Shown here: in pieces, positions 3,290-55,605 of the stretch
Position numbering within the stretch: position 1 is the stretch's first letter
Layout of the letters: every line of letters starts with the position of its first letter
Source of the DNA: Candidatus Binatia bacterium
Lineage (GTDB): Bacteria > Desulfobacterota > Binatia > HRBIN30
Direction: 5' to 3'
Assembly (NCBI GenBank): GCA_050015455.1
Contig: JBEKBJ010000003.1
Span: forward strand, 36,202-100,201
DNA length: 64,000 nucleotides
Made by a program: the position numbers and the translations under genes
The notes under the pieces: generated by a model
Told to the model about the DNA's origin: nothing
Seen by the model: only the letters and a program-made list of their open reading frames with translations
Database searches by the model: none

Positions 3290-5614
3290 ATGCGTCCCCG
3301 CGACCTTGCCGCATTAGAATTCGATCGCGTTCGCAACCGGCTGGCGGACTTCGCCTGCTCGTCGGCGGGGAAGGAAGCGTGTTGCGCCCTGGCACCGAAG
3401 AGTGAACGGAGCGCGGCCGAAAACGCGCTCGAGGCCGTCTGGCAGTGCTTCCGCTTGCTCGAGGAGCAGGGAACCATCCCGTTGTCGGAGTTCCCCGACA
3501 TCCGCTTCTCCTTGCGCACGGCGGCACGCGAAAGCTCTGTCCTCGATGGCAAGTCGCTGGTCGAAGTCCGGACGGTGCTCGCGGCAGTTGAGGAAATGCG
3601 GGCATTTTTGAGGAAGCAGGCAAAATCGTTTCCCGCGCTGGCGGAGCTGCCGGACCAGCTCGTGCCGTTGCCCGAACTGCACCACACGCTGACGCTTGCC
3701 CTCGACGAGAACGGCGTTGTGAGCGACGACGCCAGCGATGAGCTGGCGGAGGTGCGGCGCACGATTCGCCAACTGCGGGCGAAGCTCACGCGCCGGCTGG
3801 AAGATCTGCTGACGCAGCCGACGATGGCCGAGATGCTCGGTGATCGCTTCGTGACCCTGCGCAACAACCGCTTCGTGCTCCCGATTAAGACCGCCATGGC
3901 CAGGCAGTTTGATGGCGTGGTGCAGGACCGCTCGGCTTCCGGCGAGACCACGTTCATCGAGCCGTTGTTCGCGGTCGAGCTGAATAACCACCTGCTTATG
4001 GCCAGCAAGGAAGAGGAATGGCTGGTGCGGCGGATCCTCGGCGACCTCACGGCGCTGGTGCGCGCCGACCACGAGACCATTCTCGCCAGCTTCGGCGCCC
4101 TCGTCGAGATTGATGCGTTGGCGGCGCGGGCAAAGTTCGCGCAGCGCTACCGGTGCACGCAGCCGCACTTCGATGGGGAATTGGTGCTCGAACAGGCGCG
4201 CCACCCGCTGCTGCTGTTCGGCGACCGCGAGGTCACGCCCATCAACCTGCGCATCCCGAACGGCAAGCAAGTGCTGGTGATCACCGGCCCGAACACCGGG
4301 GGCAAGACCGTCGCGCTGAAGACGTTGGGGCTCATGGCGCTCATGGCACAGAGCGGCATGCTGATCCCTGCCGCCGAGGGCGCCCGCCTACCGTGCTTCC
4401 GGGCGATCTATGCTGACATCGGCGACGAGCAGAACCTCGAGCGCAGCCTCTCGACGTTCTCGGCGCACGTGGCGAATCTGACCGAGATCATCGAAGCGTG
4501 CGAGGCCCCGGCGCTGGTGCTGCTCGATGAGCCCGGGGTGGGCACGGATCCGGAGGACGGCGCGGCGCTCGGCATCGGCATGATCCAGATCCTCGAGGAC
4601 ACTGGAGCTCATGTCGCTCTCAGCACCCATTACGCGCCGCTGAAGCTGTTCGCGCTCAGCCATGACGCCTGCATCACGGCGGCGGTCGATTTCGATGTCG
4701 AAGCCATGCTGCCACGCTATCGGCTACGCTATCACTCGATCGGGGAAAGCTTGGCGCTGCCGATTGCGCGCCGGCTCGGCATGCCCGCCGCCGTTCTCGA
4801 CGCCGCCGGCGCCGCACGCACCGAGCAGGCGAAGGCGCTGGCCGCCGCCGTGGCCGCGCTCGAAGCCAACCGCCGCCGCTACGAAGAACGCCTCAGCGAA
4901 GTCGAGGAACGAGCCCGGAGCGCGGCAGGGGCACAAGAGGAAGTCAAGCATTTGTTGGAGGAGCTACGCGAAAAACGCCGCCGCCGTTGGGCGGACGAAC
5001 TGCACGCCGCCCGCGACTTCGTACGCACGCTGCGTGAGCAAGGCCGCGAACTGCTTGCCGCTGTGGAGCGCGGCGTCGCTGATCGGCAAGCATTCAATCG
5101 ATGGCTCCGGCAGCAAGAAGCGGAAATCGGCGCGCGTGAGGCGGAGTTTGCCGCCCAGTTACTCCCAATGTCCGCGCCGCCGCGAATCGGCGATCAGGTT
5201 CAGGTCGGCGACACCGGCATCCGTGGCCAGCTGCTGTCGGTGGACGGGGAGCGTGCCCGCATCCAGCGTGGCAACCTGCGCTTCGAAGTGCCGGCGGCGC
5301 AGCTGCACCGCATCGGCGAGACGGCACCAGCGGCAACGGAAGTGCACGTTGCCGCCGCACCGGAGGACACGCCGCAAGAGATCACGTTGTTGGGGCTACG
5401 GGCCAAAGAGGCCGTCGCTGAACTCGAACAATTCCTGGACCGAGCGGCACAGGCGCGTCACCCGTCGGTGCGCATCATCCACGGCGTCGGCAGTGGTGCA
5501 CTGAAGCGCGCCGTGCAGGACTACCTGTCAACGTCGCCGTACTGCACAGCTTTTCGCGCCGGCGAGCCGCGCGAAGGTGGCGCCGGAGTCACGGTCGCCG
5601 AGATTGCGTGCTGA
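3290..5614 (+). CDS. mutS2: Endonuclease MutS2 (MutS ATPase domain plus C-terminal Smr domain)
   Basis: Walker A TGPNTGGKT, the MutS domain V pattern and a C-terminal Smr domain (RIIHGVGSGALKRAVQDYL). Confidence 0.9.
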   Translation: MRPRDLAALEFDRVRNRLADFACSSAGKEACCALAPKSERSAAENALEAVWQCFRLLEEQGTIPLSEFPDIRFSLRTAARESSVLDGKSLVEVRTVLAAVEEMRAFLRKQAKSFPALAELPDQLVPLPELHHTLTLALDENGVVSDDASDELAEVRRTIRQLRAKLTRRLEDLLTQPTMAEMLGDRFVTLRNNRFVLPIKTAMARQFDGVVQDRSASGETTFIEPLFAVELNNHLLMASKEEEWLVRRILGDLTALVRADHETILASFGALVEIDALAARAKFAQRYRCTQPHFDGELVLEQARHPLLLFGDREVTPINLRIPNGKQVLVITGPNTGGKTVALKTLGLMALMAQSGMLIPAAEGARLPCFRAIYADIGDEQNLERSLSTFSAHVANLTEIIEACEAPALVLLDEPGVGTDPEDGAALGIGMIQILEDTGAHVALSTHYAPLKLFALSHDACITAAVDFDVEAMLPRYRLRYHSIGESLALPIARRLGMPAAVLDAAGAARTEQAKALAAAVAALEANRRRYEERLSEVEERARSAAGAQEEVKHLLEELREKRRRRWADELHAARDFVRTLREQGRELLAAVERGVADRQAFNRWLRQQEAEIGAREAEFAAQLLPMSAPPRIGDQVQVGDTGIRGQLLSVDGERARIQRGNLRFEVPAAQLHRIGETAPAATEVHVAAAPEDTPQEITLLGLRAKEAVAELEQFLDRAAQARHPSVRIIHGVGSGALKRAVQDYLSTSPYCTAFRAGEPREGGAGVTVAEIAC

Positions 5615-5623
5615 CGCAGGGAC

Positions 5624-6808
5624 TCAGCTCCCGCGCGGCAGCCCCAGCACTTGCATGGCGATGATCCCGCGCATGATCTCCGAGGTCCCGGAGGCGATGC
5701 TGGCCGCGGGCGCCTGCAAGAACGTGCGCTGCAGCCACTGCTCCGGATTGAAGTGCTCGCTGCCGGGATCGGGGGTGTCGTAGAGCAGGCCCGATGGTCC
5801 CAGGATCGACATGCCGATACGCGGCATCGCCTGGGTGAGCTCGGTCCAGTGCAGTTTAATGATCGAGGCCTCCGGGCCGGGCATACCCCAGCGCAGCAAC
5901 TTGTCGAGCGTACGCTGGCAGGTGTGCCGAAAGGTTTCGACACCCAGGTAGATGTCAGCCAGCGCCTGGCGCATCAGGGGGTCGCGGCTCGCGCCGCGCT
6001 CGCGCGCCAGCCGGAGGAGCTGATCGCGTCCGCGGGCCAAGAGGATCTGCATCTCGACCACGTACAGGATGCCGCGCTCGTTCTGCAATGCGGCGGTGGC
6101 AATCTGCCAACCGTTGTGCAGCTCGCCTAGGAGGTTTTCACGCGGCACCCGGACATCCTCGAAAAAGACCTCGCTGAATTCCGCCTGGCCGCCGATCTGC
6201 CGTAGCGGTCTGACCGTGATTCCCGGGCTCTTCATATCGACGAGCAGGCAGGAGATACCATTGCGCCGTTTCGACTCGGGGTCGGTACGGCACAGGACCA
6301 TGCACCAGTTGGCGTGCTGCGCCAGGGTGGTCCAAACCTTTTGGCCATCCATGACGAAGGAGTCGCCCTCCAGAATCGCCTTGGTGCGCAGGGACGCCAG
6401 ATCCGACCCGGCGCTGGGCTCGGAAAAGCCGAAGCACCAGAGATCTTCCGCCGTCAGGATGCGGCGCAAGAAGCGTTGCTTTTGCGCCTCGGTACCGTAA
6501 GCAATCAGGGACGGGCCCGCGATCCCGATCCCGAGGCTGCCAGCGACCTCGGGCGCCTGGGCGTGCGCCATCTCCTCCGTGTACGCGATCTGCTCCGGAA
6601 TCGAAGCTTCCCGTCCGCCGTATTCCACCGGCCAGGTGATTCCCACCCAGCGTGCCTCGGCGAGCTTCGCCTGCCAGGCACGCAGGCGCGGAATACGTTC
6701 CGCTTCGGGCAGCTTGGCGGCGTGTTCGGCCTGCAGCTCACCCGGAAGATTGGCCGCCAGCCAGCTGCGCAACTCCTTACGGAATACCTCGAGATCTTGT
6801 GTCCCCAT
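5624..6808 (-). CDS. Acyl-CoA dehydrogenase family protein
   Basis: ACAD N/M/C domain pattern over about 394 aa; convergent with mutS2. Confidence 0.75.
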   Translation of the reverse strand: MGTQDLEVFRKELRSWLAANLPGELQAEHAAKLPEAERIPRLRAWQAKLAEARWVGITWPVEYGGREASIPEQIAYTEEMAHAQAPEVAGSLGIGIAGPSLIAYGTEAQKQRFLRRILTAEDLWCFGFSEPSAGSDLASLRTKAILEGDSFVMDGQKVWTTLAQHANWCMVLCRTDPESKRRNGISCLLVDMKSPGITVRPLRQIGGQAEFSEVFFEDVRVPRENLLGELHNGWQIATAALQNERGILYVVEMQILLARGRDQLLRLARERGASRDPLMRQALADIYLGVETFRHTCQRTLDKLLRWGMPGPEASIIKLHWTELTQAMPRIGMSILGPSGLLYDTPDPGSEHFNPEQWLQRTFLQAPAASIASGTSEIMRGIIAMQVLGLPRGS

Positions 6809-6900
6809 GGCGGAGTTTTGTAAACGTCTGCTGCCCCGACGTCAATGTGCTGGCGTCACGGCGCAATTCGGTGTAATGAACCTCACCGCTGAGGTGTGAT

Positions 6901-8886
6901 GTGTCGAGCAAGCGAAGTTGGGGTTGGATCTGCGCCGTCATAGCACTGCTCGCACTCGGTCGGACAGCAACGCTGGCGCAAGTGGTTCCGATCCGCGGTG
7001 ATGCCAATTGTGACGGGCGGGTCGATGCAAGCGACATCGACGCCGTCATCGCGCTCCTGTTCGGTGAGGCCGGCGCCTGCCCGAGCGCAGAGGCCAACGC
7101 GGACGCCAACCAGGACGGTAGCGTGACTGCGGCGGACATCACCGCGGTGGAGCTGCTCCTACCGCTGGCGGGGCCGACGGGTACCCCGAGCGTAACCCCG
7201 ACGCCCTCAGAAACCCCGACCATCACGCCGAGCCCGCTGCCGAGCGTAACGCCGACCATCACACGCACCCCCGTTCCAAGCCTGACCCCAACGATCACGC
7301 GCACTCCGACTCGGACCGTGACGCCGAGCGTCACACTCACCCCGACACGCAGCTTCACTCCAACTGCGACCGCAGTCGCGACGGGTACCCCTACCGCGAC
7401 CAAGACTGCCACGTCCACCGCAACCCCGAGTAAAACCCGCACCTTCACACCGACTCGAACCTCAACTGCAACCCCCACCGCCACGTGGTCGCCTACCTTG
7501 ACGCGAACGCCAACGGTCACGCGCACACCCACGTCAACCTCCACTGTAACGCCCACTCCAACCCCATCGGCTACGCGACCGCCGACGAGCACGCCGACCC
7601 CGACCCCATCGCCAACCGTGACTCGGACCCCGTCTTCCACAGCGACGCCGTCGCCCACGCGCACCCCGTCACCGACGCCGACACCGTCGCAGACCGCGAC
7701 GGCGACCCGGACGCCTTCGAACACATCAACGCCAACGCCCACACGCACTCCGTCACTGACGCCGACACCGTCGCAGACTGCGACAGTGACTCGGACGCCT
7801 TCGAACACGTCAACGCCAACGCCCACACCCTCACCGACGAACACTTCGACGCAGACGCCGACGCACCCACCGTCAAAGGGGCCGATAGTAAACTACTTCG
7901 GCCTGACGACGGGGGATAACTCGGTGCTGACGCCGGATGACACGGACGCGGAAGGCAACCCAGTCTACACGCGTCCGATCGGCTTCGGCTTCTTCATCGT
8001 CATCGAAGCGAGGCCGGGCACGAGCGGGCTTCTGCCGCAGCCTATGTTCGAAAACAGCAATCCCTCCCAGCTGCCCGACGTCCAGATCGAAGCGAATCAG
8101 TCATTGGGAACGGGGGCGGGCCGCGGTAGCTTGGCGGTTTGCGACAACGGGCCGCCGCCGACGCCGCTCGGCGGTGTACCGGGGATCAACCCGCCAAGCT
8201 TTGACCCGACATCGCAGTTCATCGCCAATGCGCTGAACGACTTTGGCTGCCGGTTTGCCGACAACACCTCGGCCCCGTGTACAAAAGTCGACGACAGCGG
8301 GATCAACAAATACGTGATGGCGAACTCCAAAGCGCAGTATTGCACGAACACGGTCCTCGGTGCCGAGTTGGCATTCCCGCCCGGAGACACCCTGCTCACC
8401 GTCGAACTGCGCGACTACAACGCCGCAACTCAGACCCACGTCAACACCGGGTATCCTGTGAGTCTAGTGGTCCGCGTGCCGACCCCGGCACCAACCGGCA
8501 CCCCAACCGAGACCTTCCCTCCGACGCTGACGCCGACCATCACACTTACCAGAACACCCAGTACAACGCGGACCGTTACCGCCACGCCGACGATCACGTC
8601 GACCCCGCTCCCCAGTTCGACGTGGACGAATACGCCGCTACCGACGGTCACCGCGACGTTTACGCCGACGCTTGTTCCAACTGCCACTGGAACGCTCACC
8701 CCGAGTGCGACGGCGACGGCGACACCGACAGCAAGCCCGACGTCAAGCCCCAGCCCAACCCCGACACCGAGCGCAACCACGGCGCCCAGCGGGACGCCGA
8801 CAGCCACTTCGATGCCGAGCACGACCGAGACGGAAACCCCGGCAGTAGCCGATACCGCGACTGCAACTGAGACACCCGGGATCTGA
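6901..8886 (+). CDS. Secreted modular protein: signal peptide, N-terminal dockerin-like double repeat, long Thr/Pro-rich linker, central globular domain of unknown function, C-terminal TP-rich tail
   Basis: GTG start at 6901 with GAGG 5 nt upstream, followed by a hydrophobic signal peptide. GDANCDGRVDASDIDAVIALL and NADANQDGSVTAADITAVELLL fit the dockerin repeat consensus. About 260 aa of TPT/TPS low-complexity sequence follows. The central ~240 aa domain is Cys-containing with no motif I recognise. Confidence 0.7.
   Translation: MSSKRSWGWICAVIALLALGRTATLAQVVPIRGDANCDGRVDASDIDAVIALLFGEAGACPSAEANADANQDGSVTAADITAVELLLPLAGPTGTPSVTPTPSETPTITPSPLPSVTPTITRTPVPSLTPTITRTPTRTVTPSVTLTPTRSFTPTATAVATGTPTATKTATSTATPSKTRTFTPTRTSTATPTATWSPTLTRTPTVTRTPTSTSTVTPTPTPSATRPPTSTPTPTPSPTVTRTPSSTATPSPTRTPSPTPTPSQTATATRTPSNTSTPTPTRTPSLTPTPSQTATVTRTPSNTSTPTPTPSPTNTSTQTPTHPPSKGPIVNYFGLTTGDNSVLTPDDTDAEGNPVYTRPIGFGFFIVIEARPGTSGLLPQPMFENSNPSQLPDVQIEANQSLGTGAGRGSLAVCDNGPPPTPLGGVPGINPPSFDPTSQFIANALNDFGCRFADNTSAPCTKVDDSGINKYVMANSKAQYCTNTVLGAELAFPPGDTLLTVELRDYNAATQTHVNTGYPVSLVVRVPTPAPTGTPTETFPPTLTPTITLTRTPSTTRTVTATPTITSTPLPSSTWTNTPLPTVTATFTPTLVPTATGTLTPSATATATPTASPTSSPSPTPTPSATTAPSGTPTATSMPSTTETETPAVADTATATETPGI
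7666..7833 (+). repeat. Tandem direct duplication of an 84-bp unit (x2, near-identical) inside the TP-linker coding region
   Basis: ccgtcaccgacgccgacaccgtcgcagaccgcgac...cgcact is followed immediately by ccgtcactgacgccgacaccgtcgcagactgcgac...ccctc. Each unit encodes a ~28-aa [13 protein letters not shown][AV]TRTPSNTSTPTPT[RP] module. Confidence 0.8.
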
Positions 8887-8990
8887 GATCGCGGCCCCGG
8901 CGTTGGGCTACGCTCTGCATCGAAGGGGCGGGAGCAGGACTTGACCCGAACGCTCGCAACGTGCACGAGCAGGAGTAGAGGAGAACTACG

Positions 8991-9410
8991 ATGCAGTGGA
9001 CCAGCTGGATTGGTCTAGCACTTGGCGTGGTGATGGTCAGCGCCCCTAAGCTTGGGCCGCCACCTGTCATGCTCGACCTCGGCCCTGTCGTCCCGACCCC
9101 GGTACCATCGCCCAAATCGGCCGAGAAGAAGCGGCTGATCACGACGATTACCGTGCAGAATTCACCTGAGGGCGAAAGCATTGTTTCGTTCGAAGCCACC
9201 GATGTCGCCGATGAAGGCAAGGACAAGTTCCGCACCCTGGCTTCGAAGAACTACTCGCTGGCGGAGGAGAAACCCGAACTGAAGCATCTGCGTGAGCGGA
9301 TCCTTCAGGACCTGCGCGGCATAGAGCGGGAGATGCTCGATTTCGCCGAGCTTGCTGGCCCGCCCAAAGAGCGCGCGCCATTACAACCGGGCGACGCACG
9401 ACCGCATTGA
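8991..9410 (+). CDS. Hypothetical small protein with an N-terminal hydrophobic segment (possible signal/TM) and a charged C-terminal half
   Basis: GAGGAG RBS before the ATG and a 139-aa ORF lying between two convergent dockerin-protein genes. No recognisable motif. Confidence 0.45.
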   Translation: MQWTSWIGLALGVVMVSAPKLGPPPVMLDLGPVVPTPVPSPKSAEKKRLITTITVQNSPEGESIVSFEATDVADEGKDKFRTLASKNYSLAEEKPELKHLRERILQDLRGIEREMLDFAELAGPPKERAPLQPGDARPH

Positions 9411-9470
9411 TCCGGCGGAGAGCAGCAGCCGGACGTTGGGCTCGATCGTCTGTCCGGAATTGAATTGAGC

Positions 9471-12400
9471 CTACTGTAGCAACTCGATCAGCGCCGTGAC
9501 GTCGGCAGCGGTGACATCGCCGTCGCTGTTGAGGTCGGCATCGCTCGAATCGATCTCCTGAAAGATCGCCCCGATGACATCGACCAGCGCCGGCGGTGGC
9601 GTCGGGGTCACGGTGGGGGTGGCGGTCAGCGTCGGAGTGCCGGGGATGGGAGTCAGCGTCGGCGTCGCTGTGTTGGTCGGCCGCCGGCTGCGCGTGGGAG
9701 TTGGTGAGCCCGTTGCCGTGACCGTAGGCGCCGGCGTCGTAGCAAAGCCGGAGTAGAAGCGGCTATACAGCAGCAGATTGCTCGCGGCTGCCATCTGCGA
9801 ATTCGGTTCCGTGTCCCAACAGTACGTCAACGTGGTCACGATCACGCGGCCGGCCCCGTACTGGTACTCCGCCCAGCTCGGGCCGTCGCTGTTGTTGAGC
9901 ACAATGGTCGCATCGTCCGGCAGGTTCGTGAGCACGCCTAGGTCCGTTGGTCCCCAGCTGCTGAAGTCCTTCGGTCCTAGTACGTTGCCACCGAACGGAA
10001 TCCCGGCAAGGTACAAGTGATCAGGGGCGCTGATGTCCTCGTAGTCGTGTTGAGCCACGGCGGAGAACCCAACACCCCCCGGAGCTATGTTCAGCTGATC
10101 GCCGACCAATCCGCCGGCGTTGATCACGGCCACACCGCCGAGCGAGACGAATTGTTCAATGAAGCGGCCTGGCAATACCAGCTGCTGCAGCCAGGCATAA
10201 TTGGTGGCGCCCAATCCCGGCGGGATGTAAACCACCTGATACTGATTGCGGAGTTCGACCGGATCGCTGCTGGCAAGGGTTTGGAATGGTTTGCTTCCGT
10301 TACTTAAGCCCAGAGTCTGCGAGAGGTTGAACACGCAGGCCGCCTGCTCCGCGTCCTGTGGGAACAGGAAGGGAACGCCAGGGGACGGCGGTGTCACCGG
10401 AACGCTGGTGAAGGTCGGCGAAATCGTTGGCGTATCCGACGGCGTCGGCGTGGCAGTATCCTCTGGCACCGGCGTTTCCGAAGGGGTCGGCGTAACCGCC
10501 GGGGTCGGCGTGTCCGTGGCAGTGGGTGAACTCGTTGGCGTGAATGTCGGTGTCGCGGTCGGAGTGAGCGACGCTGTTGCGGTTGCTGTTCCCGTCGGGG
10601 CCGGCGACGGAAATGGGCTTGCGGTCGCACTCGGCGAAGGCGTTGCCGTGGCGGTCGGTGAGGGCGTCGCGGTGGCAGTAGGTGAGGGCGAGGAGGTAGC
10701 GGTCGCTGTAGGCGAAGCCGTCGCGGTCAAGGTCGGTGTCAGAGAGGGCAGCGGCGTCGGAGTCGGGGAGCTGGTCGTTGTCGCCGTCGGCGTGGGCGTT
10801 GGTGTCGGCGAGGGCGTGAGCGTTGGTGTCAGCGAGGGCGTGTACGTCGGTGTCCCCGTGGGGGTGGCGGTGATGGTGGGGGTGTTGGTGAATGTTGGGG
10901 TGTTGGTGGATGTTGGGGTGGCGGTTAACGTCGGGGTGTTGGTGAACGTTGGGGTGCTGGTGAACGTTGGGGTGCTGGTGAACGTTGGGGTGCTGGTGAA
11001 CGTCGGCGTCGGTGGGGTCCAGCAGACTTGGACGAAGACCGTCGTCGTCCGCACCTCATCACCAAGTCCAGAGAGGTGTTGCACGCCAGCCTGCAACGCG
11101 CTTAATTGTTGCCATGCCCACGCCATTCCCGTGCTCGGATTGGTCTTGTAGAGTGTGTTGATATCGGTGTAGGTGGTGGTCGTCGGCGCCGCCGAACCAA
11201 TAAATACCGACCCGCTGAGGTTGATCTGTGGGCTCGCGGAACTTCCGCTTATGCCTCCAACCGAGCGGCTGACCACGTGGACGGTCACCGATGAGATCGG
11301 ATCGGACCGTGGTGTCGGAGCCGTCAGGGCGTAGATGTCGGAACGCGCAATGCCACGGCAGTCCTGACCGCAAAAGACATAGGAGGCGTCGCCATCGTCC
11401 GGCGGCACTTCGCATTGCCAGTTCTGGCTGCACCCGGAGGCCTGGTTCCCGTTTGGAGACTGGCCGGAGCCCGCTGGCACCATCAGCAGGCAGTTTGCAG
11501 GCGAGGTGGGCGTGGGTCCCGGCGTGTCCGTCCACGTCGCCGTCGCGGTTGGGGTTGAGGTGCTCGTTGCGGTCGCCGAGGCCGACGGCGTGGAGGTTGA
11601 GGTCGAAGTGATGGTCGCGGTCGGAGTAAAGGTGGCGCAGTAGCCCGACCCTTGGCACACTGCACCGAAAACCGGGCTGCAGTTGGGCGGACACTGCCCG
11701 CCGCTTGGCGGTCCACATGCGGGATACGGGCACTGGCAACAATCATTCGAGCCCGGAGTGTTAGTCGCCGTAGGCGTATTCGTCGGCGTCGGTGTCTCAG
11801 TCGGCGTGGGCGTATTCGTTGGTGTCGGCGTTTCAGTGGGTGTGTTCGTCGAGGTCGGCGATGCCGTCGGCGTGTTCGTAGGGGTCGGTGTAATCGTCGC
11901 GGTCGGCGTCCAGGTCGCGGTGGACGTGGCGGTACTCGTAGGCGTCGCCGTCGGGCTAAATGTATAGGTTGGTGTCTCTGTGGGTGTGTTTGTTGGCGTC
12001 ACCGTAGGCGAGCTCGTCGGCGTGTCGGTCGGCGTTGCCGTGACCGTTGGCGTCGCGGTGGCCGTGGAGGTTGCAGTGTTTGTGGGTGTCGGCGTCGGGC
12101 TCGGCGTGTAGGTCGGCGTGTCGGTCGACGTGTTTGTCGGCATGACCGTCGGCGTGACCGTCGGCGAGTTCGTCGGCGTGTCGGTCGGCGTGTCAGTCGG
12201 GGTCGGCGTGTTCGTTGCCGTGTCAGTCGGGTTGGGTGTTTCGGTCGGCGTGTCAGTCGGGGTCGGCGTGAACGTCACGCAAGTCCCGCTTGGCCCGTCG
12301 CACCCGGCGTTTGGCACCAGGGTACCAGGGGCGCAGCTGCCGCCCTGGTCAATGTTTGCGCAGGCGCCCACGTACTGACAGCAGTCGGCGTGCACCTGGC

Positions 12401-12545
12401 GTGCAGCGATTTGAACCGCTAATAAAATGGTCAGTGCCGCGATCACGTGGCGCCGCGCGCGACTCTTCACGGCAAGCGTTCGATCGCTGTCCGGGCTGCG
12501 GTGCGATCGTGGCTGCGTGTATTCCACGTGCGTGGACCTGTTCAT
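9471..12545 (-). CDS. Large secreted modular protein: signal peptide, two Cys-rich modules, TP-rich linkers, two globular domains of unknown function, C-terminal dockerin-like repeat
   Basis: The signal-like segment is [27 protein letters not shown]. Two Cys-rich modules are present ([20 protein letters not shown]...; [21 protein letters not shown]...). The C-terminus [21 protein letters not shown] is a dockerin-type repeat. The start is uncertain: ATG at 12545 or GTG at 12470. The longer ORF would run into the hisS start. Confidence 0.65.
10877..11010 (-). repeat. About seven tandem copies of an 18-bp unit (ggggtgytggtgaaygtt on the + strand) encoding PTFTST repeats
   Basis: Direct reading shows consecutive 18-mers differing at one or two positions. 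They translate on the - strand as [19 protein letters not shown]. Confidence 0.8.
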
Positions 12546-12604
12546 TGACTTGAAGTACACCCTCTGATACCTAACTCGCCACCCACAGCGCAAGCGCTCC
12601 CACA

Positions 12605-13906
12605 ATGAGAATCGCGTCCGTCAAAGGATTTCACGACATCCTGCCCGACGAGAGCGTCCGTTGGCAATGGATCGAGCAGCAGGCAAGAGAGCTGTTCGCG
12701 CGCTACGCTTTCGCCGAGATCTGCATTCCGATTGTCGAGCGCACCGAGCTGTTCAGCCGCTCGATCGGCGAAACCACGGACATTGTCGAGAAGGAGATGT
12801 ACACCTTCACCGACCGCGACGGTTCCTCGCTGACCTTGCGTCCCGAAGGGACCGCCTCGATCGTGCGCGCCTACGTCGAGCATGCGCTGCACCAGCGCGA
12901 GGCGGTCTCGAAACTCTTCTACTTCGGGCCGATGTTCCGCCGCGAACGGCCACAGAAAGGGCGTCTGCGCCAGTTTTCTCAGGTCGGCGTGGAGGTGATC
13001 GGCCGCGATGATGCCGCCATCGACGCGGAGGTGTTGCTCCTGCTGCACGATCTGCTCGCTGGTGTGCAAGTCCGTGGAGCGCAGATCGAGCTGAACTCGC
13101 TCGGCTGCGGCGCCTGCCGCCCCGGATATCGCGCTGCGCTATTGGCCTATGGTGAAGCGCACCGCGACGTGCTGTGCGAGAACTGCAGCCGGCGTCTCGA
13201 GCGCAACCCGCTGCGGTTGTTGGACTGCAAGGACCCGGCGTGTCGAGAATCGACGGCCGACGCCCCGATGATGATGGATTATCTGTGTGAGGCGTGCCGC
13301 ACGCATTTCGACGCCGTCCGCGCGATGCTGGCGCGTGAGAGCGTGGAACCGCGGCTCAATCCACGCATGGTGCGCGGCCTCGATTATTACTGTCGCACCG
13401 CCTTTGAAGTAGTGGCCGAGGGCTTGGGCGCGCAAAACGCCGTCGGTGGTGGCGGCCGCTACGATGGCTTGGTGAAGGCTCTCGGTGGTCCGGACGCGGC
13501 CGGAATCGGCTTCGCGCTCGGAATCGAGCGGCTGGTGCTGGCGCTCGCCGAGCACGAGCGGATCCGTCCTCAGGTCCCTGAGGTCTTCGTCGCGCCGATC
13601 GGCTCCGTGGCCGAAATGGAAGCCATGCACCTGGCCCACCGCTGGCGTCGCGACGCGATGCGTGTTGAAATGGCCAGTGGGGGCAGGAGTTTGAAGAGTC
13701 AGATGCGCTTGGCTGATAGAGTTGGGAGCCCTTACGTACTGATCCTCGGTGAGGAAGAGTTGGCGGCGCGGTCGTTGACGGTGCGCGACATGGTGGCCAA
13801 GCGCGACTTCCCGAGAGCGATCGAAATGTCTTCGTCTGCGAACGCATTGCGGCAAGCGCTGCTGCAATGCGCGCAGCCGGTAGGGAGCAACGCACGTGAA
13901 CGCTGA
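12605..13906 (+). CDS. hisS: Histidine--tRNA ligase
   Basis: The N-terminus [10 protein letters not shown]...IVEKEMYTF aligns with HisRS motif 1 and the HisA region, and the class II core pattern is present. Confidence 0.92.
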
Positions 13907-15674
13907 AGGTTTAGGTAACTGGAAACGCAGCTTGTACTGCGGCGACCTGCGGCTCGCCGATGAAGGTCGAGAGGTGACCGTGATGGGTTGGGTGCACACC
14001 CGGCGCGACCACGGTGGCCTCATTTTCATCGACCTGCGCGACCGTGCTGGGGTCGTGCAAATCGTCTTCAATCCCGAGCGCAGCCAGGTCGCGTTCGAGT
14101 TAGCGCGGGACCTGCGTAACGAATCCGTACTGGCCGTGCGCGGCCGCGTCGGGCGCCGGCCGGCCGAAACGCAGAATCCGAACTTGGCCACCGGCGAGAT
14201 CGAAGTCATGGCCAGTGAGGCCAAACTGCTCAGCCGCGCGCGCAGCACGCCGTTTCCGATCGATGGCGGCGCGGCCATCACCGAAAGCATGCGGTTGAAG
14301 TACCGCTACCTCGACCTGCGCCGACCGGAAATGCAGGAACGGCTCATCTTCCGTCACCGCCTGGTGAAAGCGGTGCGCGACTACTTCGATAGCCAGGGTT
14401 TCGTTGAGATCGAAACACCGATGCTCACGAAGAGCACGCCCGAAGGGGCGCGCGACTACTTGGTGCCGAGCCGCGTCAACCCCGGCTGCTTCTACGCCCT
14501 GCCGCAGTCGCCACAGCTGTTCAAGCAGCTGTTCATGATCGCCGGGCTGGACCGTTATTTCCAGATTGCGCGCTGCTTCCGTGACGAGGACCTGCGTGCC
14601 GACCGGCAACCGGAGTTCACACAGATCGACCTCGAGATGTCCTTCGTCCAGCCGGACGACATCATCACGGTGACCAGCGGCATGCTGGCCGCGGCCTGCG
14701 CCTTGCGGGGCATCGAGGTGCCGCAGCCGATCCTGCGGCTGAGCTACGACGAGGTGATGCGCCGTTTCGGCATCGATAAGCCCGACATGCGCTTCGGGCT
14801 GGAGCTGTCAGATGTGACCGAGATCGCGCGCCGGGTCGAGTTCAAGGTGTTCCGCGAGACGGTAGAAGGCGGCGGCATCGTCAAGGTGCTCTGTGTACCC
14901 GAGGGCGACCGCTTGTCACGCAAGGATCTCGACGGGCTTCCCGATCTCGTTATGCCCTACGGAGCCAAGGGTGTTGCCTGGGTGCGTCTGACCGAATCCG
15001 GCTGGCAGTCCCCGATTGCCAAGTTCATCGCGCCGGCGGACCAGGCTGCGATCGAGCAGGCTTGCGGCGGCCACACCGGGGACTTGCTCATATTCGTCGC
15101 CGACACAGCGAAGGTGGTCAACGACTCGTTGGCCAACTTGCGGCTCAAGCTGGGCGATCAGCTCGGGATGATTCCGAGCGACCGCTACGCCTTCGTATGG
15201 GTGACGGATTTCCCGCTGGTCGAATACTCGGAGGAAGAGAAGCGGTTCGTGTCGGTCAATCACCCGTTCACCGCCGCGCACGAAGAGGACTGGGACCGGT
15301 TGGAGTCGGATCCATTGAGCGTGCAGGCCTTGGCGTACGATGTCGTCCTCAACGGTACCGAACTGGGTGGCGGCAGCATTCGTATCCACCGACCGGATCT
15401 GCAGTCACGTGTGTTCGCCTTGCTCGGCCTGAGCGAAACCGAGGCGCGTGCGAAGTTCGGATTCTTGCTCGATGCGTTGTCGTTCGGCGCGCCGCCGCAC
15501 GGCGGTCTCGCCTTCGGGCTCGACCGGCTCGCCATGCTGCTGTGCGGCGCCACTTCGATCCGCGATGTCATTGCCTTTCCGAAGACCCAGCGTGCCGTGT
15601 GCCTTATGACCGAGGCGCCAAGTCCGGTCGATGCGCGCCAGCTGCGCGAACTGGGATTGAAGTTGAATGAGTAA
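13896..15674 (+). CDS. aspS: Aspartate--tRNA ligase
   Basis: GTG start with AGGGAG RBS, overlapping the hisS stop. N-terminal OB-fold ([21 protein letters not shown]), the class II motifs and a GAD insertion are present. Confidence 0.92.
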
Positions 15675-19812: not shown

Positions 19813-22800
19813 TCACGGCCCCAGCTCACCGCTCGTCAACAACGAGGTAACGTTTCCGTTTGGCGAGGTGATTGTCACCGAAATGACCGCCGGCTCGTCA
19901 CTGGTCAGTCCGGTAGGAGCCGTGAGCACAAAGGTGAATTGCGTCAGGCCGCCCACCAACTGGTTGAATGACTCACCGTCCGGCACGGTGATGCCGCCGC
20001 CCGTCACGGTGCCATTGGACGCGCTGATGGCGATTGTCGATCCGCCGACCAGGGGGTTGACCAGATCGTCATGCACATTGATCGTAAATGACATTGATGC
20101 CCCGGTCGAGAGGTAGAACGAGTAACACGATCCTGGCGACCCTGGCAACGAGCACCCTTCCAGTACCGGCGCTTGCGTGGGGCCGGAGAAGGTCACGGGG
20201 ATGGCGCGCCACACCAGGATGTTGTTATCCCAGTACCCATGCGTGCCTTGCCCGATTCCAGTCGTGCCGACGCTGTCCCAGACCCCGTTCCCATTGGTGT
20301 CGACGAACAGTTCGAAGTCGTCCGTGACGTTGAACTGGTTGTCGCAAAGGGAGCTTGGCGGTGAGATCGGGCAGGTGGAGTCAGCTGGCGGGTAGGGCCG
20401 GAAGTCGATGAAGGGCTCGGGTATATCGTCCGTCAGGATGACGTCAGCTTGCGGGCCGGGTGCGGGCGGACACGGCGGAGCGTTGAAGCCGGGAGCGCAG
20501 TCGAAAATGCCATCGCCGTTGTTGTCCTTGAACGACTCTTCGCCATGAGTGAAGGCCATGACCGTCACGATGCCGGTCGGTGGGACGACTCCCTCGGTCA
20601 CCAACGTCGCGGTCGCGACGCCGGAGGCATCCGTGGTAGTTGGGCTGACCACGCTGGCGGCGTTGGTGACGAAGGACACTGCCGTTCCCGGCGGGACAGC
20701 GTTGCCGAACCGGTCGTTGACGTACGCCGAGATTTGATCCGACAGGCCGAACGTCACGCGGCCCTGAATGTTCAGCTGCTTCGCCGCGATACTGAAGTGA
20801 TTGTATGCTGGCGGCGCACCGAGGATGCTGACCGCCGTTGATTGCGCCGAAACTCCCGGGTTCGTCACCACGGTAGCGACTACCCGCACGGTCGTAGCCT
20901 GGATGCCACTGGTCACCGTGGTGCTGACCAGCCCGTTCTGATCACTCACCGCCGACAGCGGATTGAGGCTTTCCGATCCGCTGCCGGACAGCGTGAATTG
21001 GACAGCGACGCCAGACATGGGGTTGTTTGTGGTGCTGTTTACCTTGAAGACCAGCGTCGACTGTTCCGGCAGCCCGGAGCCACGCACACCAATGGACGGA
21101 GGCGTGGCGCCCAGGAATTGGATCGAGCCGGCCGGGGGTGTTGGGCTCAGCGTTGGAGTGCTCGGGGGCGTAAAGGTGGCCACGCCTGAGGGCCAAGGAC
21201 TCGGCGTCGCCGTGATGGTGGGCGTATTCGTTGGCGGTGGCGTCGCTGTCATTGTTGGCGTCGCCGTCGGCCGGGTGTCAGGCAACGTGATCGTCTTCTC
21301 CGCCTCGATCACCGCCCCCGTCGCGGTCGTGACGCGAGCACGGATAGTGATCGTGGTTCCCTGCATATCGTACACGTACTTGATGCACGCCAGAGCATCG
21401 CCCGGCTGTGGTGTGACGCTGAAGCTGATGGTGCAAGGCTGCGCCTCATTGGTGAATCCGGGGCTGGTGATCGACACACCCGAGACCGGATTCACCAGGC
21501 TGAACTCCACCGGCACGCCATCGGCGATGGTTGCACCGTTGGCGTCGGTCACCAGCGCGCTCACCACGCTGGAGAACGTCCCGTCACCATTATCGACGCG
21601 CTGGTTCTCGGCCAGATCCACATCGATGAAGGCCGCAGGCGGTCCCTGCTGCGTGACTCCAGCCGTCGCGATGCGGCCGAGCGCATCCGTAGCGGTGATC
21701 AAGAACGTCCCGACTTCGTTGCCGGCAGTGAAGGTGAACGAACCACCGGACGCCGGCACCACGGTCGTATTCAGACACCCGACTCCGCTGGCGGAGATCG
21801 TGAACGGCGCCGCCCCGCCGCTCACCACGAACGTTTGCGGGATGCCGTTACAATTGGGCGGTGGTTCAACTCCGGCCCACAGCGTCGCGCCGCTCGGTGC
21901 GATACTGGGAGGCTGTACGGTCGGTGTCGCAGTAGGCAGAACCGTGGGCGTCGACGTGATCGTCGGCGTGGCGGTGGGACGTGTATCGATGAGAATAATC
22001 TGCCGTTCGTCCGAAACGAAGCCGCCGGTCGCGGTTTGCACGGTTGCCTGCACGGTCACGGTCGTGCCCTGCAGTGCTGCAACATACTTAAGGCACGACA
22101 GCGCGTCACCGGGCTGCAGCACGATGCTGAAGTCGATCGTACATGGCTGCGCCTGGCCGGTGTATCCTGGGCTGGTCAGTGACACCCCAGAGACCGGATC
22201 GACCAAGGTGAATGTGACCGGCACTCCATCTCCAACGACGACGCCGGAGACATCGGTCACCAGGGCGCTCACGATCGTCGTGAAGGTCCCGTCCTGGTTG
22301 TTGGTCACGTGACTGAGGATCTGATCCAAGCGCACGTAAGCAGCGCCGGGGGTTGGCGGCACGGTCGCCGTCGCCGGCACGGTCGCCGATGCCGGCGGTG
22401 TGTTCGTAGGCAGCGGTGTGAGCGTGAACGTCGGGGTCGGAGGCCCTTGGACCGTGACCCCGGCCGATGCGGTCTTCCCTGCAGCGTCGGTCACGGTGAT
22501 GGTGAAGTTACCGAGCACGTTGCCCGCCGTGAAGATGAACGAGCCACCCGAAGCGGGAACGCTGCTGACGCTGACACAGCCGCCACCAGCAAACACGCTG
22601 AATGGTGGACTGCCGCCCGTAACCACGAAGGTCTGGGTTGCACCGTTGCAGCCGTTCGGCGGTGCGCCGTCGCCTGCAGCCAGGGTCGATTGGGTTGGCG
22701 CGATCATCGGTGGCTGCGGCGTCGGTGTGGGCGACGGAGCCAGTGTCGGAGTCGCCGTGGGAGTGAAAGTGGCGGTGATCGTCGGCGTCGGCGTCGGCAT

Positions 22801-25800
22801 CGCGAGGAAGGTGATGACATCGGATACCGTGACCGAGCCGTTGCCGCCGCCCGGCAGCGAATCCAAATCTGACGTGACCTTGATCGTGACGACGTCGACC
22901 TCGGACGTCGTGGACTGCGGCGCATTGTCGAGCACAGTGAAGTGGAACCGATTGATCCCGTCGATCAGCTGATCGAAGGTTATGGCGTCCGGTAAGGTGA
23001 AGTTGCTCAGGCCGATGACGCGGGCGCGACTGCCATCAACGGAGATGGCCACCGTCGACCCGCCGACGATCGGGTTTCCCACTCCCGTATTGACCAGCGG
23101 ATCGGGATTGTCGCTGACGATCAACGTGTAGTTGAGGGATCCGCCGGCCTCTATGGGACCAGTACTGCCCGGAATCAGCCAGACGCTGGTCGGTCCGGAG
23201 AAGGTAGTGCAAACGTTGTTGAACACCACCACCTGGTCGCCGCACGCCGGTGTTCCCGAGCCTTGATCGCTGTCCCACTTACCGTTGCCGTTGAGGTCGA
23301 TGAAGTCCTCACCGGGGTCGTAGGTGCCGTTGCAGTTGGCATCGTAGAACGGTTCCGGTATCGCCAGCAGCTGATCGCCGCTGTCGCACACGCCGTTACC
23401 GTTCACGTCGATAAAGGGCCGTTCTCCGCTACTGGTCGCCAGCGTGACGACGATCCCGTTGGCCGGGACGGGGGCTTGCGTCACGAGCGTTGCCGTCGCC
23501 TGGCCGAGATCGCTGGTGGTGGTGGGGTTGCCGATCGCGCCACCCTTGGTCGTGAAGTCGACGGTTGTCCCCGGCGGCACCGGATTTCCAAAGCGGTCGG
23601 CGACAAACGCGGTGATCGTATCGGCAATCCCATAGTAGACGCCGCCCGAAACGTTGGCTAACTTATGCACCACGCTGAAGTTCGGCTGCGACGGTGGCCC
23701 GCCGAGAATACTGACGGCCGCCGAGCGCACGATGAGCGGCGGCGACACGCTGTCGACTTCCGCTGTGACCTGGACGCTCATCGCCCGCTCACCGCTGGTC
23801 AACGTCACTTGCACATTGCCAGCACTGTCCGTCACCGCCTGCAGCGGCGAGATCTGCTCGTCTGCAATCCGCGCGATGGAAAAATTCACCGTGACTGCCG
23901 AGAGGGGAGCGCCCACGGCGTCCGTGACCTGGAAGGTGAGCACCGATTGCTCCGGCAAACCCGAACCGCGCACGCCGATGGTGGCAGGCTGCGCGCCGAG
24001 AAATTGCATCGCTCCAGGCTGAGCCACCGGCGTCGGTGTACCCGGTGTCGGTGTGGTGGTGGCTGTGACGTTGACGATGGGGACGGTAACGTCGGTGATC
24101 GGCAGGCCACCACCCCCCACCTGTACGGTCGCCGTGCCAGACTCCGTCCCGGCTGGAATAACCAAAGTGGCGCTCGCCTGGCCGTTACTGTCGGTCAGGG
24201 CCGACTGATCGATGGTGCCGACGGACGTAGTGAAGTGGATGCGCACGTTCTCAACCGGATCCAAGTTGGCATCGAACACCGAGACGCGGACGAGGGCAGG
24301 GGCGTCATCGGTGTTGTTGACGAGAACCGTGGCGGGTACCACCTTCACTTCCAAATCGCTGACCGCACCTGGCAGCGTGACTGCCTGGCCGCCTTGGTTA
24401 TCGACGCTGCCCACGGTGGCGTGTACCTGTATTTCCGTCGCCTGCAGCGCGATCGGGTATTTCACGCAGGTGATGGCATCGCCGAGCTCGAGTGAGATCG
24501 GCAGGCCGGTTTGGGTAACGTACTGACTGGTGTCACACGGCGGCTCCGCGTCGGTCACCGCACTGCCTGACAGGACCACGTTCTGCGCCGGATCGTCGGA
24601 GCCGTTTGTCAGCATGGCGAAGAACACGCCGGTCCCGTCTTCAACCGGATTACCCTGTGCGTCCGTGACGCTTGCGGTCAGCACAGTCAGCAGCGTGCCG
24701 TCATTGTTGTTGCTGAATTTCTGACTGATGCTGATCCCGATGTGGCTGGCTGGCCCCGAGGAGACGGTCACCACCGTCTGCTGCTCGCTGAGCGGTGCAG
24801 GCACACCGTATACTGTGGTATCCGCGCAAGCTGCAATCGTTATCGGGCCGGGTTGCGGGCCGGCGTGCACCTGGATGACGGCAACTCCTGCAACGTCGGA
24901 AACCGAGACCGGGTCGTCCGCTGCGCACAGCGTCGTAGGGATAGGCGTCGGCGAGCTGGTCGGCACTGGTGTCGTCACAGGCAGAATGGCAGCGCCGGCA
25001 GCACTCGCTGCGGCGACAACGTGGTAGTGGACGTTGACGCCACTCAGCGGATTGCCGTTGTTGTCGAATACGCGGCCGATGACGGTGGCCAGCTCCGTCC
25101 CGCCCGTACCCGCCACTTGGATATGGGTCGGGCTCGCACCAAGCGTGATAGCAGCCGGTTCCCCTGGTGGCACGCCAGGATTGACCGTACCCGAGCCGGC
25201 CACGACCGTGATCGTCGCCGAACCGGATACACTTCCGGCTACCGCGCTGACGGTGAAGGGTCCTTCCGGCATACCGACGGGCACCTGCAACACCGAGGTC
25301 GCAACGCCGCTCTGCGTCTGGTCCGTCAGCGGATTCACGTAGCCTGCCGGCGTAACGAACAACACGTCGATACCGTTGATTGGAGCGTTGTCGGCGTCGA
25401 GCACCGCCGCGGTGAGATTAATCGCGCCGCCCGAGAGATTGCCTACCGTGGATGGGTCGGCTTGCAAGACCACGGTCGCGACCGGTTTCGTACTGACACC
25501 GGCGACCACGTTGACCGAAACGTTGCCGGTCTTGCCGCACGCCTGAGCTGAGACGGCCAGGGAACCGACGCTCGAGTTCACCGGAATGTTCAGCGTGGTC
25601 ATCGCCGTGCCGTTGTTGTCGGTCGTCTGCACCAATTGGCTGAACGACGCCGCGTTTCCCGGTTGCACCTCGAAAAGGATGGCGACTCCCGCCACTCGGA
25701 TGTTGTTCGAATCGAAGGCGATCGCAGTAATCTTAGCGCTGCCACCCGTCTGGCTGCTCACGTTCGGCGTGTCGGTCTGGACAATGATCGTCTGCACGAC

Positions 25801-26490
25801 TGCACACGGCTCGGGGGTCGGTGTCACCGTTGGGGTCCAAGTCGGCGTCGGGGTCGGGGTCGGCGTTGGCGTCGGGGTCGGGGTTGGTATCGGGGTCCAA
25901 GTCGGCGTCGGCGTCAGGCTCGGGGTTGGTGTCGGCGTCAGGGTCGGGGTTAGCGTCGGCGTCACTGAGGGCGTCGGTGTCACTGAGGGCGTCGGCGTCG
26001 GCGTGCTCGTCGCGGTTGGTGCGGGGCCCACAGAGACCCTCAGCGTCACTGACAGCCCATTGAGCGGTGACGTCGGGTCTATAACGCCGACTGTCAAGGG
26101 GTAAAGTCCGGCCGCTGGGGCCAGAGCGGAGCCGCTAAATGAGCCGTCACCACCGGTAATACCGACGCTGCCAGGAGACAACACGGTCAAGTTTGTTGTG
26201 ATCGCCACCTCTTGACCGGCAACGGGATGACCCTGGGAGTCTTTCAGGAACACGCTGAATGCAGTGGTGTCACCCGCCGCGAGTTCGACGTTCTGAATGC
26301 ATAACGTTATCGCCCCGGCATTAGAGCTCTCGGTCCATTGATTGGGACACACTGGCAGGGGGGTCGGCGTCAATTGCCCGGTCTGCGAGGAGCTGGTGCT
26401 GCTGCCGCCGCCACCACCCCCGCAGCTACTCACCAGCAGCACCAGGCCCGCTGCCAGACCCAATCTAGCCATCCCCATCCGGCGTCCCAT
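19813..26490 (-). CDS. Giant (2225 aa) surface lipoprotein built from repeated bacterial Ig-like (Big/invasin-like) modules and TP-rich linkers
   Basis: Lipobox LLVSSC followed by a Gly/Ser linker. Modules of the type [18 protein letters not shown] / [15 protein letters not shown] resemble Big_1 (invasin/intimin Ig-like) domains. Large internal duplications are present (e.g. [29 protein letters not shown]... and [29 protein letters not shown]...). Confidence 0.75.
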
Positions 26491-50177: not shown

Positions 50178-50411
50178 TTACACCGTGTCGAGGACGCGGT
50201 GGTATTCGTCGGGAGTCACGCCGATTTCTCGTAGGATTTCGCGAATCAGCGGCCGAGCCAACTCCCGGCCCGGATGATGCGGGATGGAGGTGCCGCGCCC
50301 GTCCGGGTGGCGATAAAAGGCGTGGCTTCCCTTCTGACGACTCTTCTGAAACCCAAGCGCGAACAGCACGCGCTCCAATGTGGCCGCATCAACAATGCGC
50401 AGGCGGCTCAT
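50178..50411 (-). CDS. hicA: HicA-family mRNA interferase toxin
   Basis: GSHAFYRHPDGRGTSIPHHPGRELARPLIREILREIG resembles the HicA/YcfA fold. The gene overlaps the hicB stop by 4 nt (ATGA). Confidence 0.75.
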   Translation of the reverse strand: MSRLRIVDAATLERVLFALGFQKSRQKGSHAFYRHPDGRGTSIPHHPGRELARPLIREILREIGVTPDEYHRVLDTV

Positions 50412-50638
50412 CGCTCCAGTTCAAGCTCGTGGACGCCATAAAAGCTGGGGAACTCGGTGAGGCCACGGCTCTCGGCCTCTTCGAGGCACAGTTCGACCAC
50501 CTCGCGAACGTTCCGCTCAAGTTCGTCAAGCGTTGCCGCCTGCGTGTGGGCTCCGGGAAGTGTCGGGACGGTGGCGACGAACATGCCGCTCTCGTCATCA
50601 CGTTCAATGATGACGGGGAACCGATACCGTTTGGCCAT
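50408..50638 (-). CDS. hicB: HicB-family antitoxin (N-terminal RNase H-like fold only, no obvious DNA-binding domain)
   Basis: FPVIIERDDESGMFVATVPTLPGAHTQAATLDELERNVREVVELCLE is a UPF0150/HicB N-domain pattern. Start set at MAKRYRF. Confidence 0.7.
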   Translation of the reverse strand: MAKRYRFPVIIERDDESGMFVATVPTLPGAHTQAATLDELERNVREVVELCLEEAESRGLTEFPSFYGVHELELER

Positions 50639-54741: not shown

Positions 54742-54750
54742 GGCTGCTAC

Positions 54751-55602: not shown

Positions 55603-55605
55603 GGC

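Follow-up and report, generated by a model that had tools for sequence, protein, structure and literature searches.

Two convergent dockerin-bearing, Thr/Pro-linked proteins encoded at a conserved locus of Candidatus Binatia, candidates for tethering outside the cell

A stretch of 64,000 nucleotides from Candidatus Binatia bacterium (assembly GCA_050015455.1, contig JBEKBJ010000003.1, positions 36,202 to 100,201; hereafter the window) carries two large convergent open reading frames (ORFs), A and B. In a preliminary description their products were taken to be secreted proteins with dockerin-type calcium-binding repeats and long Thr/Pro linkers, an architecture likened to that of cellulosomal and other cell-surface assembly systems. 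The locus thus raises the question of whether these are genuine dockerin proteins and, if so, what a dockerin would do in an uncultured Gram-negative lineage. The reading that we favour, and hold to be fairly probable, is that A and B are modular proteins held outside the cell by their dockerins, with payloads that would serve in surface binding or substrate capture, and that they form part of a wider dockerin-tagged secretome of the Binatia.

Gene A (6901-8886, plus strand) encodes 661 residues, arranged as signal peptide, dockerin, Thr/Pro linker, a globular domain (domA) and a Thr/Pro tail. Gene B (9471-12470, minus strand) encodes 999 residues from a proposed GTG start, in a frame that stays open up to 12605 (1044 codons), and comprises a signal peptide, two Cys-rich modules (CCQ), the domains B1 and B2 and a C-terminal dockerin. 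Thr, Pro and Ser make up about half of the residues in each protein, and the long linkers first described were found in both, with 234 and 131 residues in A and approximately 174, 39, 199 and 43 residues in B. Both ORFs are open end to end, with in-frame GC content at third codon positions (GC3) of 0.6-0.86, as compared with 0.77-0.83 in the flanking mutS2, acyl-CoA dehydrogenase, hisS and aspS genes, and three metagenome contigs of the Joint Genome Institute were 100% identical to the window over 5001-14000. Long ORFs of this kind might be spurious readthrough of low-complexity ACC/CCG repeat DNA, or a product of mis-assembly; the linkers are partly degenerate tandem repeats at the codon level (with periods that are multiples of three), and the public gene calls on the three identical contigs fragment both genes, place opposite-strand Gly/Val-rich ORFs within the linkers and call correctly only the last 287 residues of B. 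The identity of three assemblies and the gene-typical GC3 speak against such an artefact, and each globular module is conserved at the protein level in many species, within equally long ORFs. This cross-species conservation refutes the artefact, to which we attach a negligible probability. Since the modules and the synteny are conserved in related genomes, A and B are, on comparative grounds, real, lineage-specific genes lying amid housekeeping genes, and the convergent pair stands as it was described.

The fragmentation by public gene calls has consequences for database searches, as most database homologues appear truncated because the genes are cut up, and domA, B1 and CCQ are under-represented in protein databases because callers shred genes with Thr/Pro linkers. 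In practice, standard gene callers leave the proteins, domA, the CCQ module and the small gene that separates A and B (orf139) nearly invisible. In the window, spurious opposite-strand ORFs rich in Gly/Val or Arg lie across the linkers at 6777-7844 (minus strand), 10246-11151 (plus strand) and 11652-12422 (plus strand).

Related loci were gathered by a scan with an alignment of domain B2, taking one genome per species. The scan resulted in 21 loci, 18 of which belong to the Binatia group by name or synteny, two to Anaerolineae and one to Ignavibacteria; named homologues and GTDB contigs were Candidatus Binatia, older records being labelled Deltaproteobacteria and one metagenome-assembled genome (MAG) Margulisiibacteriota. 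A shared gene order was recovered by tblastn with the modules of the window: aspS-hisS, B, orf139, A convergent on B, acyl-CoA dehydrogenase and mutS2. Among the 16 loci with enough sequence, A was downstream of B in 13, with domA identities of 36-80%; the B2 of locus L012 is a paralogue located elsewhere in its genome. In the B orthologues, the ORF runs without a break for approximately 700-1560 codons from stop to stop and is usually ordered as signal peptide, two to three CCQ modules each with a Thr/Pro linker (absent in some), an optional B1, B2 and dockerin. In the syntenic contig of a closer relative (L004), every module is conserved, with identities of 76% for the dockerin of A, 78-84% for domA, 92-93% for CCQ module 2, 74-82% for B1 and 60% for B2 plus dockerin. 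In that contig (ENA ERZ25039477 contig_54431) hisS, aspS, the acyl-CoA dehydrogenase gene and mutS2 are split by frameshifts, as is typical of an uncorrected long-read assembly, and it was used for tblastn rather than for conclusions at the ORF level.

The dockerin of A (6997-7149, plus strand; residues 33-83) follows closely on a signal peptide (6901-6981, residues 1-27, MSSKRSWGWICAVIALLALGRTATLAQ), which was assigned by inspection of the sequence and is accompanied by similar N-termini in the orthologues. It matched Pfam Dockerin_1 (PF00404; gathering threshold, 22.9 bits) with 37.7 bits in the whole protein and 42.4 bits in the N-terminal 87 residues alone, and Dockerin_1 was the sole model above threshold on this module, EF-hand models reaching at most 15.6 bits. 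Its two 12-residue calcium loops (D34-D45 and D68-D79), each followed by a helix, start 34 residues apart, a spacing that corresponds in general terms, rather than by measurement, to that of canonical dockerins, and Cys37 and Cys60 are conserved. When a strict dockerin calcium-loop pattern was applied to the six-frame translation of the 64 kb, three matches were obtained, two in A and one in B, as compared with an average of 0.04 in residue shuffles.

The dockerin of B (9474-9590, minus strand) is degenerate: the helix of repeat 1 is kept, its calcium loop is lost, and repeat 2 is intact. With Dockerin_1 it reached 16.1 bits when the whole protein was scanned and 21.9 bits, slightly short of the cut-off, when scanned alone, and the alignment covered profile positions 29-56 only. 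According to the comparison of orthologues, the loss of loop 1 with retention of the helix is found in the clade of the window (the window, L005, L007 and L015), and most B orthologues end in a full two-loop dockerin (GDxNGDGxVDxxDLxxLIxALF...ADVNxDGxVTAAD); across the orthologues, the C-terminal slot is taken either by a classical dockerin or by a Cys-bridged, EF-hand-like subtype. Of the 62 B2-family members scanned with an E-value limit of 0.1, 52 matched Dockerin_1, the best of them with 1.4e-10, and a profile of the B-family C-terminus matched solved cellulosomal dockerins with E values from 6e-5 (2ccl_B) to 2e-3, as compared with approximately 0.1 or weaker for calmodulins. By these profile comparisons, the modules of A and of the B family are dockerin-type and not generic EF-hands. 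They occupy the positions originally claimed, N-terminal after the signal peptide in A and C-terminal in B, and represent two distinct subtypes, each kept among the orthologues. A single loop need not abolish function, as single-loop dockerins of Ruminococcus flavefaciens still bind cohesin (PMC12270676). Those group-2 truncated dockerins share with B the single calcium-coordinating loop; the remnant in B differs in keeping its first helix.

A different outcome was obtained at 50.0-51.4 kb, where the preliminary description had placed further dockerin fragments. These correspond to one Cys-bridged two-loop module (50753-51022, minus strand), which scored 31.9 bits with EF-hand_5 and 20.4 bits, below threshold, with Dockerin_1; the Cys-bridged modules of loci L008 and L012 likewise scored as EF-hand over dockerin. 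Hence the caveat raised at the outset, that the repeats could be generic EF-hands, applies to this module and fails for A and the B family. The module is the C-terminal part of a frame-broken CARDB gene (50753-51371, minus strand), a different subtype on a related theme. Within 50178-51600 (minus strand) this gene is broken into three frames (an upstream piece, CARDB and the EF-hand/dockerin-like pair), possibly as a pseudogene or through a frameshifted assembly, and a HicA/HicB toxin-antitoxin pair (50178-50746) adjoins it.

The dockerin of A is separated by a Thr/Pro/Ser linker (7162-7863, plus strand; 234 residues) from domA (7864-8490, plus strand), the representative of a new beta-sandwich family. 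None of its 99 homologues had a precomputed Pfam domain, and a Pfam scan of family members returned linked dockerin or EF-hand modules only. Four Cys are invariant across the family, and the AlphaFold2 model (predicted local distance difference test score, pLDDT, 93.3) showed a beta-sandwich with a large elaboration; as modelled, domA is an Ig-like, disulfide-braced beta-sandwich. It was rejected as a candidate cohesin, showing neither the cohesin jelly-roll fold nor a PF00963 match, and kinship with B1 was discarded, the two being unrelated by profile-profile comparison. The C-terminal Thr/Pro tail of A (8491-8883, plus strand; 131 residues), which bears no terminal domain, is confined to close relatives of the window.

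The domA family offers a clue to the role of the dockerin. Among 20 members with a signal-peptide-like N-terminus, 11 had an N-terminal dockerin-type loop, while seven had a lipobox and Pro/Thr linker instead (for example LGLAAC, LTLTGC and FILAGC). One more lipobox member (P0096) was found outside this heuristic set, and in another member domA comes first and a half-dockerin stands at the C-terminus. In this comparison, the dockerin sits in the structural position of the membrane anchor in the domA family, and a role as a tether is suggested because a lipoprotein anchor can replace the dockerin in domA relatives.

In B, the predicted signal peptide is followed by CCQ module 1 (12270-12386, minus strand; six Cys), a Thr/Pro linker (11748-12269, minus strand; 174 residues) and CCQ module 2 (11628-11747, minus strand; eight Cys), in agreement with the Cys-rich modules noted at first in the larger protein. 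The module spans approximately 38-45 residues with six core Cys (consensus NDCCQ[C]x4-9CxxPxxGxCxxx[C]xxV[FY]xAxCxGxxGxC[VA]TF). Among 22 modules, both optional Cys were present in 12, both were absent in 10, and in none did a single one occur; this pairing is the pattern expected of a fourth disulfide. Together with the four invariant Cys of domA, the all-or-none Cys pair would fit an extracellular setting.

Domain B1 (11001-11510, minus strand) is a beta-rich module of a widespread extracellular and phage-associated family without a Pfam model. With an E-value limit of 1e-3, an exhaustive HMMER search recovered 1217 cluster representatives, some of them stand-alone proteins of 170-200 residues and others tandem arrays of up to six copies. 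A word-indexed search returned almost nothing because the genes are mis-called, and a single-sequence pattern scan of GTDB genomes, a method that reaches close relatives only, returned none. Searches of Pfam and the PDB gave no relative of B1, not even when a profile of 29 sequences was used. In the phage protein families PHROG 6368 and 2448, the C-terminal ~130 residues are matched both by B1 and by its stand-alone relatives (E 2e-6 to 1e-11), a similarity suggesting that the stand-alone forms are structural or receptor-binding domains of phages; in B, the domain is instead embedded within a secreted bacterial protein. Many stand-alone relatives (P0202, P0216, P0229, P0315 and others) lack a signal peptide and start with MA(T/V)ETLRPNG.G; in some, the last residues are ...LLGVG.

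After a further Thr/Pro linker (10404-11000, minus strand; 199 residues) comes domain B2 (9720-10403, minus strand; 66 homologues), whose model (pLDDT 90.3) has the flavodoxin-like alpha/beta fold of class-I glutamine amidotransferases (GATase1). The best fold matches were non-catalytic proteins of the ThuA/STM3548 type; identities were 11-16% with ThuA-like 1t0b, STM3548 (2gk3), 3rht, the N-terminal domain of IFT52 (5fms) and OST48 (6s7o_G). The strand at the expected nucleophile elbow had no evident Cys, in a comparison in which residue-level superposition was not possible. Unlike this non-catalytic branch, B2 is predicted to be extracellular, has a conserved Cys pair and lacks a Pfam match. 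No Pfam or NCBIfam family matched B2 at E up to 1, and GATase, ThuA, DUF4159 and GldG-type families were absent from the B2-family members scanned at E up to 0.1.

Taken over all modules of A and B, Pfam and NCBIfam returned Dockerin_1 only, and in searches of the PDB with single sequences and profiles of domA, B1, B2 and orf139 only dockerin parts were matched. In keeping with the first description, none of the globular domains has a Pfam family. Neither a glycoside hydrolase (GH) nor a carbohydrate-binding module (CBM) family was detected in A or B by Pfam or NCBIfam, and the payloads resemble modules for binding or accessory tasks more than they do cellulases. They are domA in A and, in B, two CCQ modules, B1 (of a family that also occurs in arrays of surface proteins and at the C-terminal ends of phage proteins) and B2 (a glutamine-amidotransferase-like domain of the ThuA/GIFT kind). 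The actinobacterial glycanases CenA and Cex of Cellulomonas fimi are secreted proteins in which a small binding module is joined by a Pro/Thr linker to a larger domain. In comparison with these Pro/Thr boxes, the linkers of A and B are up to ~10 times longer and connect no known CBM or GH.

Dockerin-type modules on Thr/Pro linkers were also encountered on other payloads. The closest relatives of B1 join it via Thr/Pro linkers to a zincin metallopeptidase, a lysyl oxidase, a pyrroloquinoline quinone (PQQ)-dependent glucose/sorbosone dehydrogenase and a GH27 alpha-galactosidase, the peptidase and lysyl-oxidase proteins being from a MAG named Binatia. The PQQ dehydrogenase protein matches Dockerin_1, the peptidase protein scored 22.8 bits, just below the 22.9 cut-off, and the GH27 protein (P0167), with no Dockerin_1 match, has by inspection a Cys-subtype dockerin-like C-terminal module. 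Two more dockerin-like ORFs were present in the fetched loci. Payloads carried on long Thr/Pro linkers ending in a dockerin thus appear to form a wider repertoire of the Binatia lineage, so that the multi-copy family proposed earlier now looks like a repeated theme of the lineage. Outside the Binatia, B1-like tandem arrays share a protein with a cohesin-like region (P0172, P0183, P0184, P0197, P0175, P0228, P0233 and P0275). P0172 scored 30.9 bits with Pfam Cohesin and 22.8 bits with Dockerin_1, and by such matches the B1 family travels with cohesin-dockerin proteins in other organisms. The C-terminus of P0176 was discarded as a cohesin, the resemblance being by eye only, with no PDB or Pfam support.

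As far as we are aware, functional knowledge of cohesin-dockerin assembly comes almost exclusively from cellulolytic Firmicutes, and we know of no partners or roles for the non-cellulosomal dockerins that are common in databases. For the genes called within ~1-60 kb of the window, the precomputed Pfam hits do not include Cohesin (PF00963), and Pfam scans of the large ORFs did not detect it either, in line with the earlier statement that the window holds no cohesin-like partner. Two cohesin regions of B1-array proteins, together with a CipA cohesin, also served as queries in a crude, low-sensitivity phmmer search of six-frame ORFs over ~489 kb, comprising the window and 27 fetched loci (some of them repeating sequence of the window), and nothing scored below E = 1. 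In the sequence examined no cohesin scaffoldin was detected, and in A and B no dockerin-GH fusion. The cellulosome-like assembly to which the architecture had been likened is accordingly unsupported, because it needs a cohesin scaffold and none was found, weak as the wider search was. Nor did any of the tests made identify a carbohydrate-active enzyme among the payloads of the two proteins.

Set beside cellulosomal type-I dockerins (PF00404; Xyn10B and CelS of Acetivibrio thermocellus), the module of A shares the two 12-residue loops with their helices and an above-threshold score, the B-family profile matches the solved structures, and in both systems a flexible linker leads to the payload. 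The differences lie in the N-terminal position and conserved Cys pair of the A dockerin, the single loop of B, the lack of a detected cohesin, payloads that are not carbohydrate-active enzymes, and an uncultured Gram-negative host. The occurrence of dockerins in a Gram-negative, at first regarded as unusual, is less so, as dockerins outside cellulolytic Firmicutes were already established (Peer et al. 2009, as cited in PMC10066038). In that paper, Peer et al. 2009 is cited in connection with dockerin-bearing giant ORFs of Omnitrophota, described as putative adhesins; like A and B, these are proposed adhesins or tethers with no recognised cellulosome or partner. A and B differ from them in their syntenic, lineage-conserved locus, their very long Thr/Pro linkers and their four module families without a Pfam model. 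With no cohesin detected, we class the A/B locus as a non-cellulosomal dockerin system, a variant of an already known phenomenon. A full-text literature search for dockerin together with Binatia or Binatota returned no paper.

Under the reading that we favour, A and B would be Sec-exported, disulfide-stabilised extracellular proteins of the beads-on-a-string type. The dockerin would most likely serve as a calcium-dependent tether, by which the payload, at the far end of its long and flexible linker, is kept at the cell surface or attached to a scaffold outside the cell; in some domA relatives, this task falls to a lipid anchor. Spacing would be the function of the linkers, which might be O-glycosylated. 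In the simplest terms, the dockerin would be a portable tether on many secreted proteins of the lineage. The conservation of the locus makes it probable that A, B and orf139 cooperate at the envelope, whether in adhesion or in capturing substrate. Within this picture, the arrangement of the domains, the identity of the dockerins, the folds, the synteny and the distribution over the lineage are shown by the analysis, and export, tethering, the binding role and a functional connection of A with B are inferred. Several points weigh against this reading. In the genome analyzed, B has no two-segment dockerin, repeat 2 alone remaining, and both its lost calcium loop and its sub-threshold score count here, as do the negative results for cohesin in the precomputed Pfam hits and the phmmer search. 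No binding or catalytic activity could be assigned to any payload, both signal peptides were judged by eye, and export across the outer membrane is assumed. Moreover, A is absent from the locus in three of the 16 evaluable genomes (L006, L014 and L020), and the link between A and B is consequently not obligatory.

Other explanations share part of this evidence. A true cellulosome-like system, in which cohesin-bearing scaffoldins encoded elsewhere would assemble A and B, along with further enzymes of Binatia that carry a dockerin, into a multi-enzyme surface complex, is favoured by the above-threshold Dockerin_1 matches of A and of most B orthologues, by the B1 relatives (two of them from the named Binatia MAG) in which, as in cellulosomal enzymes, a Thr/Pro linker connects an enzyme with a dockerin-type module, and by the B1 arrays that share a protein with Pfam Cohesin and Dockerin in P0172. 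We nevertheless think it unlikely, given that no cohesin appeared in the window or in the ~489 kb, that A and B carry no glycoside hydrolases, and that a survey of 305,693 genomes found cellulosome capacity in only 33 species, mainly of the clostridial genera Acetivibrio, Ruminococcus, Ruminiclostridium and Clostridium (PMC11557425). A direct, cohesin-free interaction, with the dockerin of one protein binding domA, B1 or B2 of the other and orf139 possibly as a membrane-bound third partner, would agree with the adjacency of B, orf139 and A in 13 of the 16 evaluable loci despite the divergence of domA, and with the two distinct dockerin subtypes, each conserved among orthologues; we judge it improbable. 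Scarcely any more credit is given to the possibility that the dockerins are only calcium-binding EF-hand pairs that stabilise free, secreted or periplasmic proteins without any docking, and in fact slightly less. This possibility agrees with the EF-hand scores of the Cys-bridged modules of L008, L012 and the 50.8-51.0 kb region, with the single loop left in B and with the want of a known partner; the Dockerin_1 score of the A module as compared with its EF-hand scores, the better fit of the B-family profile to solved dockerins than to calmodulins and the occurrence of the dockerin in the lipid-anchor position of homologues contradict it.

A broader version of the tether reading, tentative and in our view rather doubtful as it stands, is that the dockerins of Binatia are a general tether replacing the lipid anchor for a diverse extracellular proteome, with a divergent cohesin or another fold as receptor, possibly an unmodelled domain or orf139. 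If true, an uncultured Gram-negative lineage would possess a surface display system that resembles the cellulosome and yet has nothing to do with the breakdown of cellulose. The outcome is a concrete dockerin-as-tether hypothesis with a set of defined proteins, made more testable by the conserved locus, by the diverse, apparently dockerin-tagged enzymes and by the natural interchange of dockerin and lipoprotein anchor within one family.

Located where A and B converge, between their stop codons, orf139 (8991-9410, plus strand; 139 residues) is conserved with 42-91% identity across 16 loci, on the strand of A in all but L013. Its product combines a small alpha/beta domain with a hydrophobic N-terminus, a stretch of the form PTPxPTP and the motif GPPKERAPL, and no Pfam or PDB relative was detected. 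Both orf139 and the lineage-wide synteny had been missed before, and the locus is richer than first described, with a third gene, lineage-wide synteny, four module families without a Pfam model and the interchange of dockerin and lipid anchor.

At the other end of B, a non-coding element conserved in an alignment of 13 loci (12523-12594) separates it from hisS. On the hisS strand it shows a CACGTG-centred palindrome (GTCCCACGTGCGTGGAC-type) followed by TTGACT-N17-TACCTA, and it is conserved as DNA in the 13 loci regardless of frame; it is likely to be the hisS promoter plus operator. A search of the whole window with Rfam gave no matches. The element overlaps the ATG at 12545 from which B had been read; this codon, lying within non-coding sequence and replaced by ACG in other loci, was abandoned as the start. 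The start is likely to be the GTG at 12470, directly ahead of a canonical signal peptide (12387-12470, minus strand; KSRARRH, core, RQVHA, with predicted cleavage before DCCQ), as judged by inspection and from the orthologues. A Tat signal (RARRH) was considered and dropped, on inspection of the sequence, in favour of an ordinary Sec signal peptide from the GTG, as was a long N-terminal extension ("MNRSTHV..."), which is conserved as DNA across frames and reads as the hisS promoter.

Elsewhere in the window, a 1004-residue ORF at 53275-56289 (plus strand) was set aside as an antisense artefact of high GC, since it has no Pfam match and overlaps minus-strand oxidoreductase genes with strong domains. 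A secreted 624-residue protein of the pectin-acetylesterase family (PAE; 42423-44297, plus strand), with a ~230-residue Ala/Lys-rich, Cys-containing N-terminal region, was considered as a further dockerin protein and rejected, as it has no dockerin. The 2225-residue protein encoded at 19813-26490 (minus strand) contains no fewer than seven Ig repeats of the Big_1/invasin type and shows weak matches to macroglobulin MG2/MG4; its gene adjoins aroB, aroQ and a pilMNOPQ type IV pilus cluster (26.5-33.3 kb).

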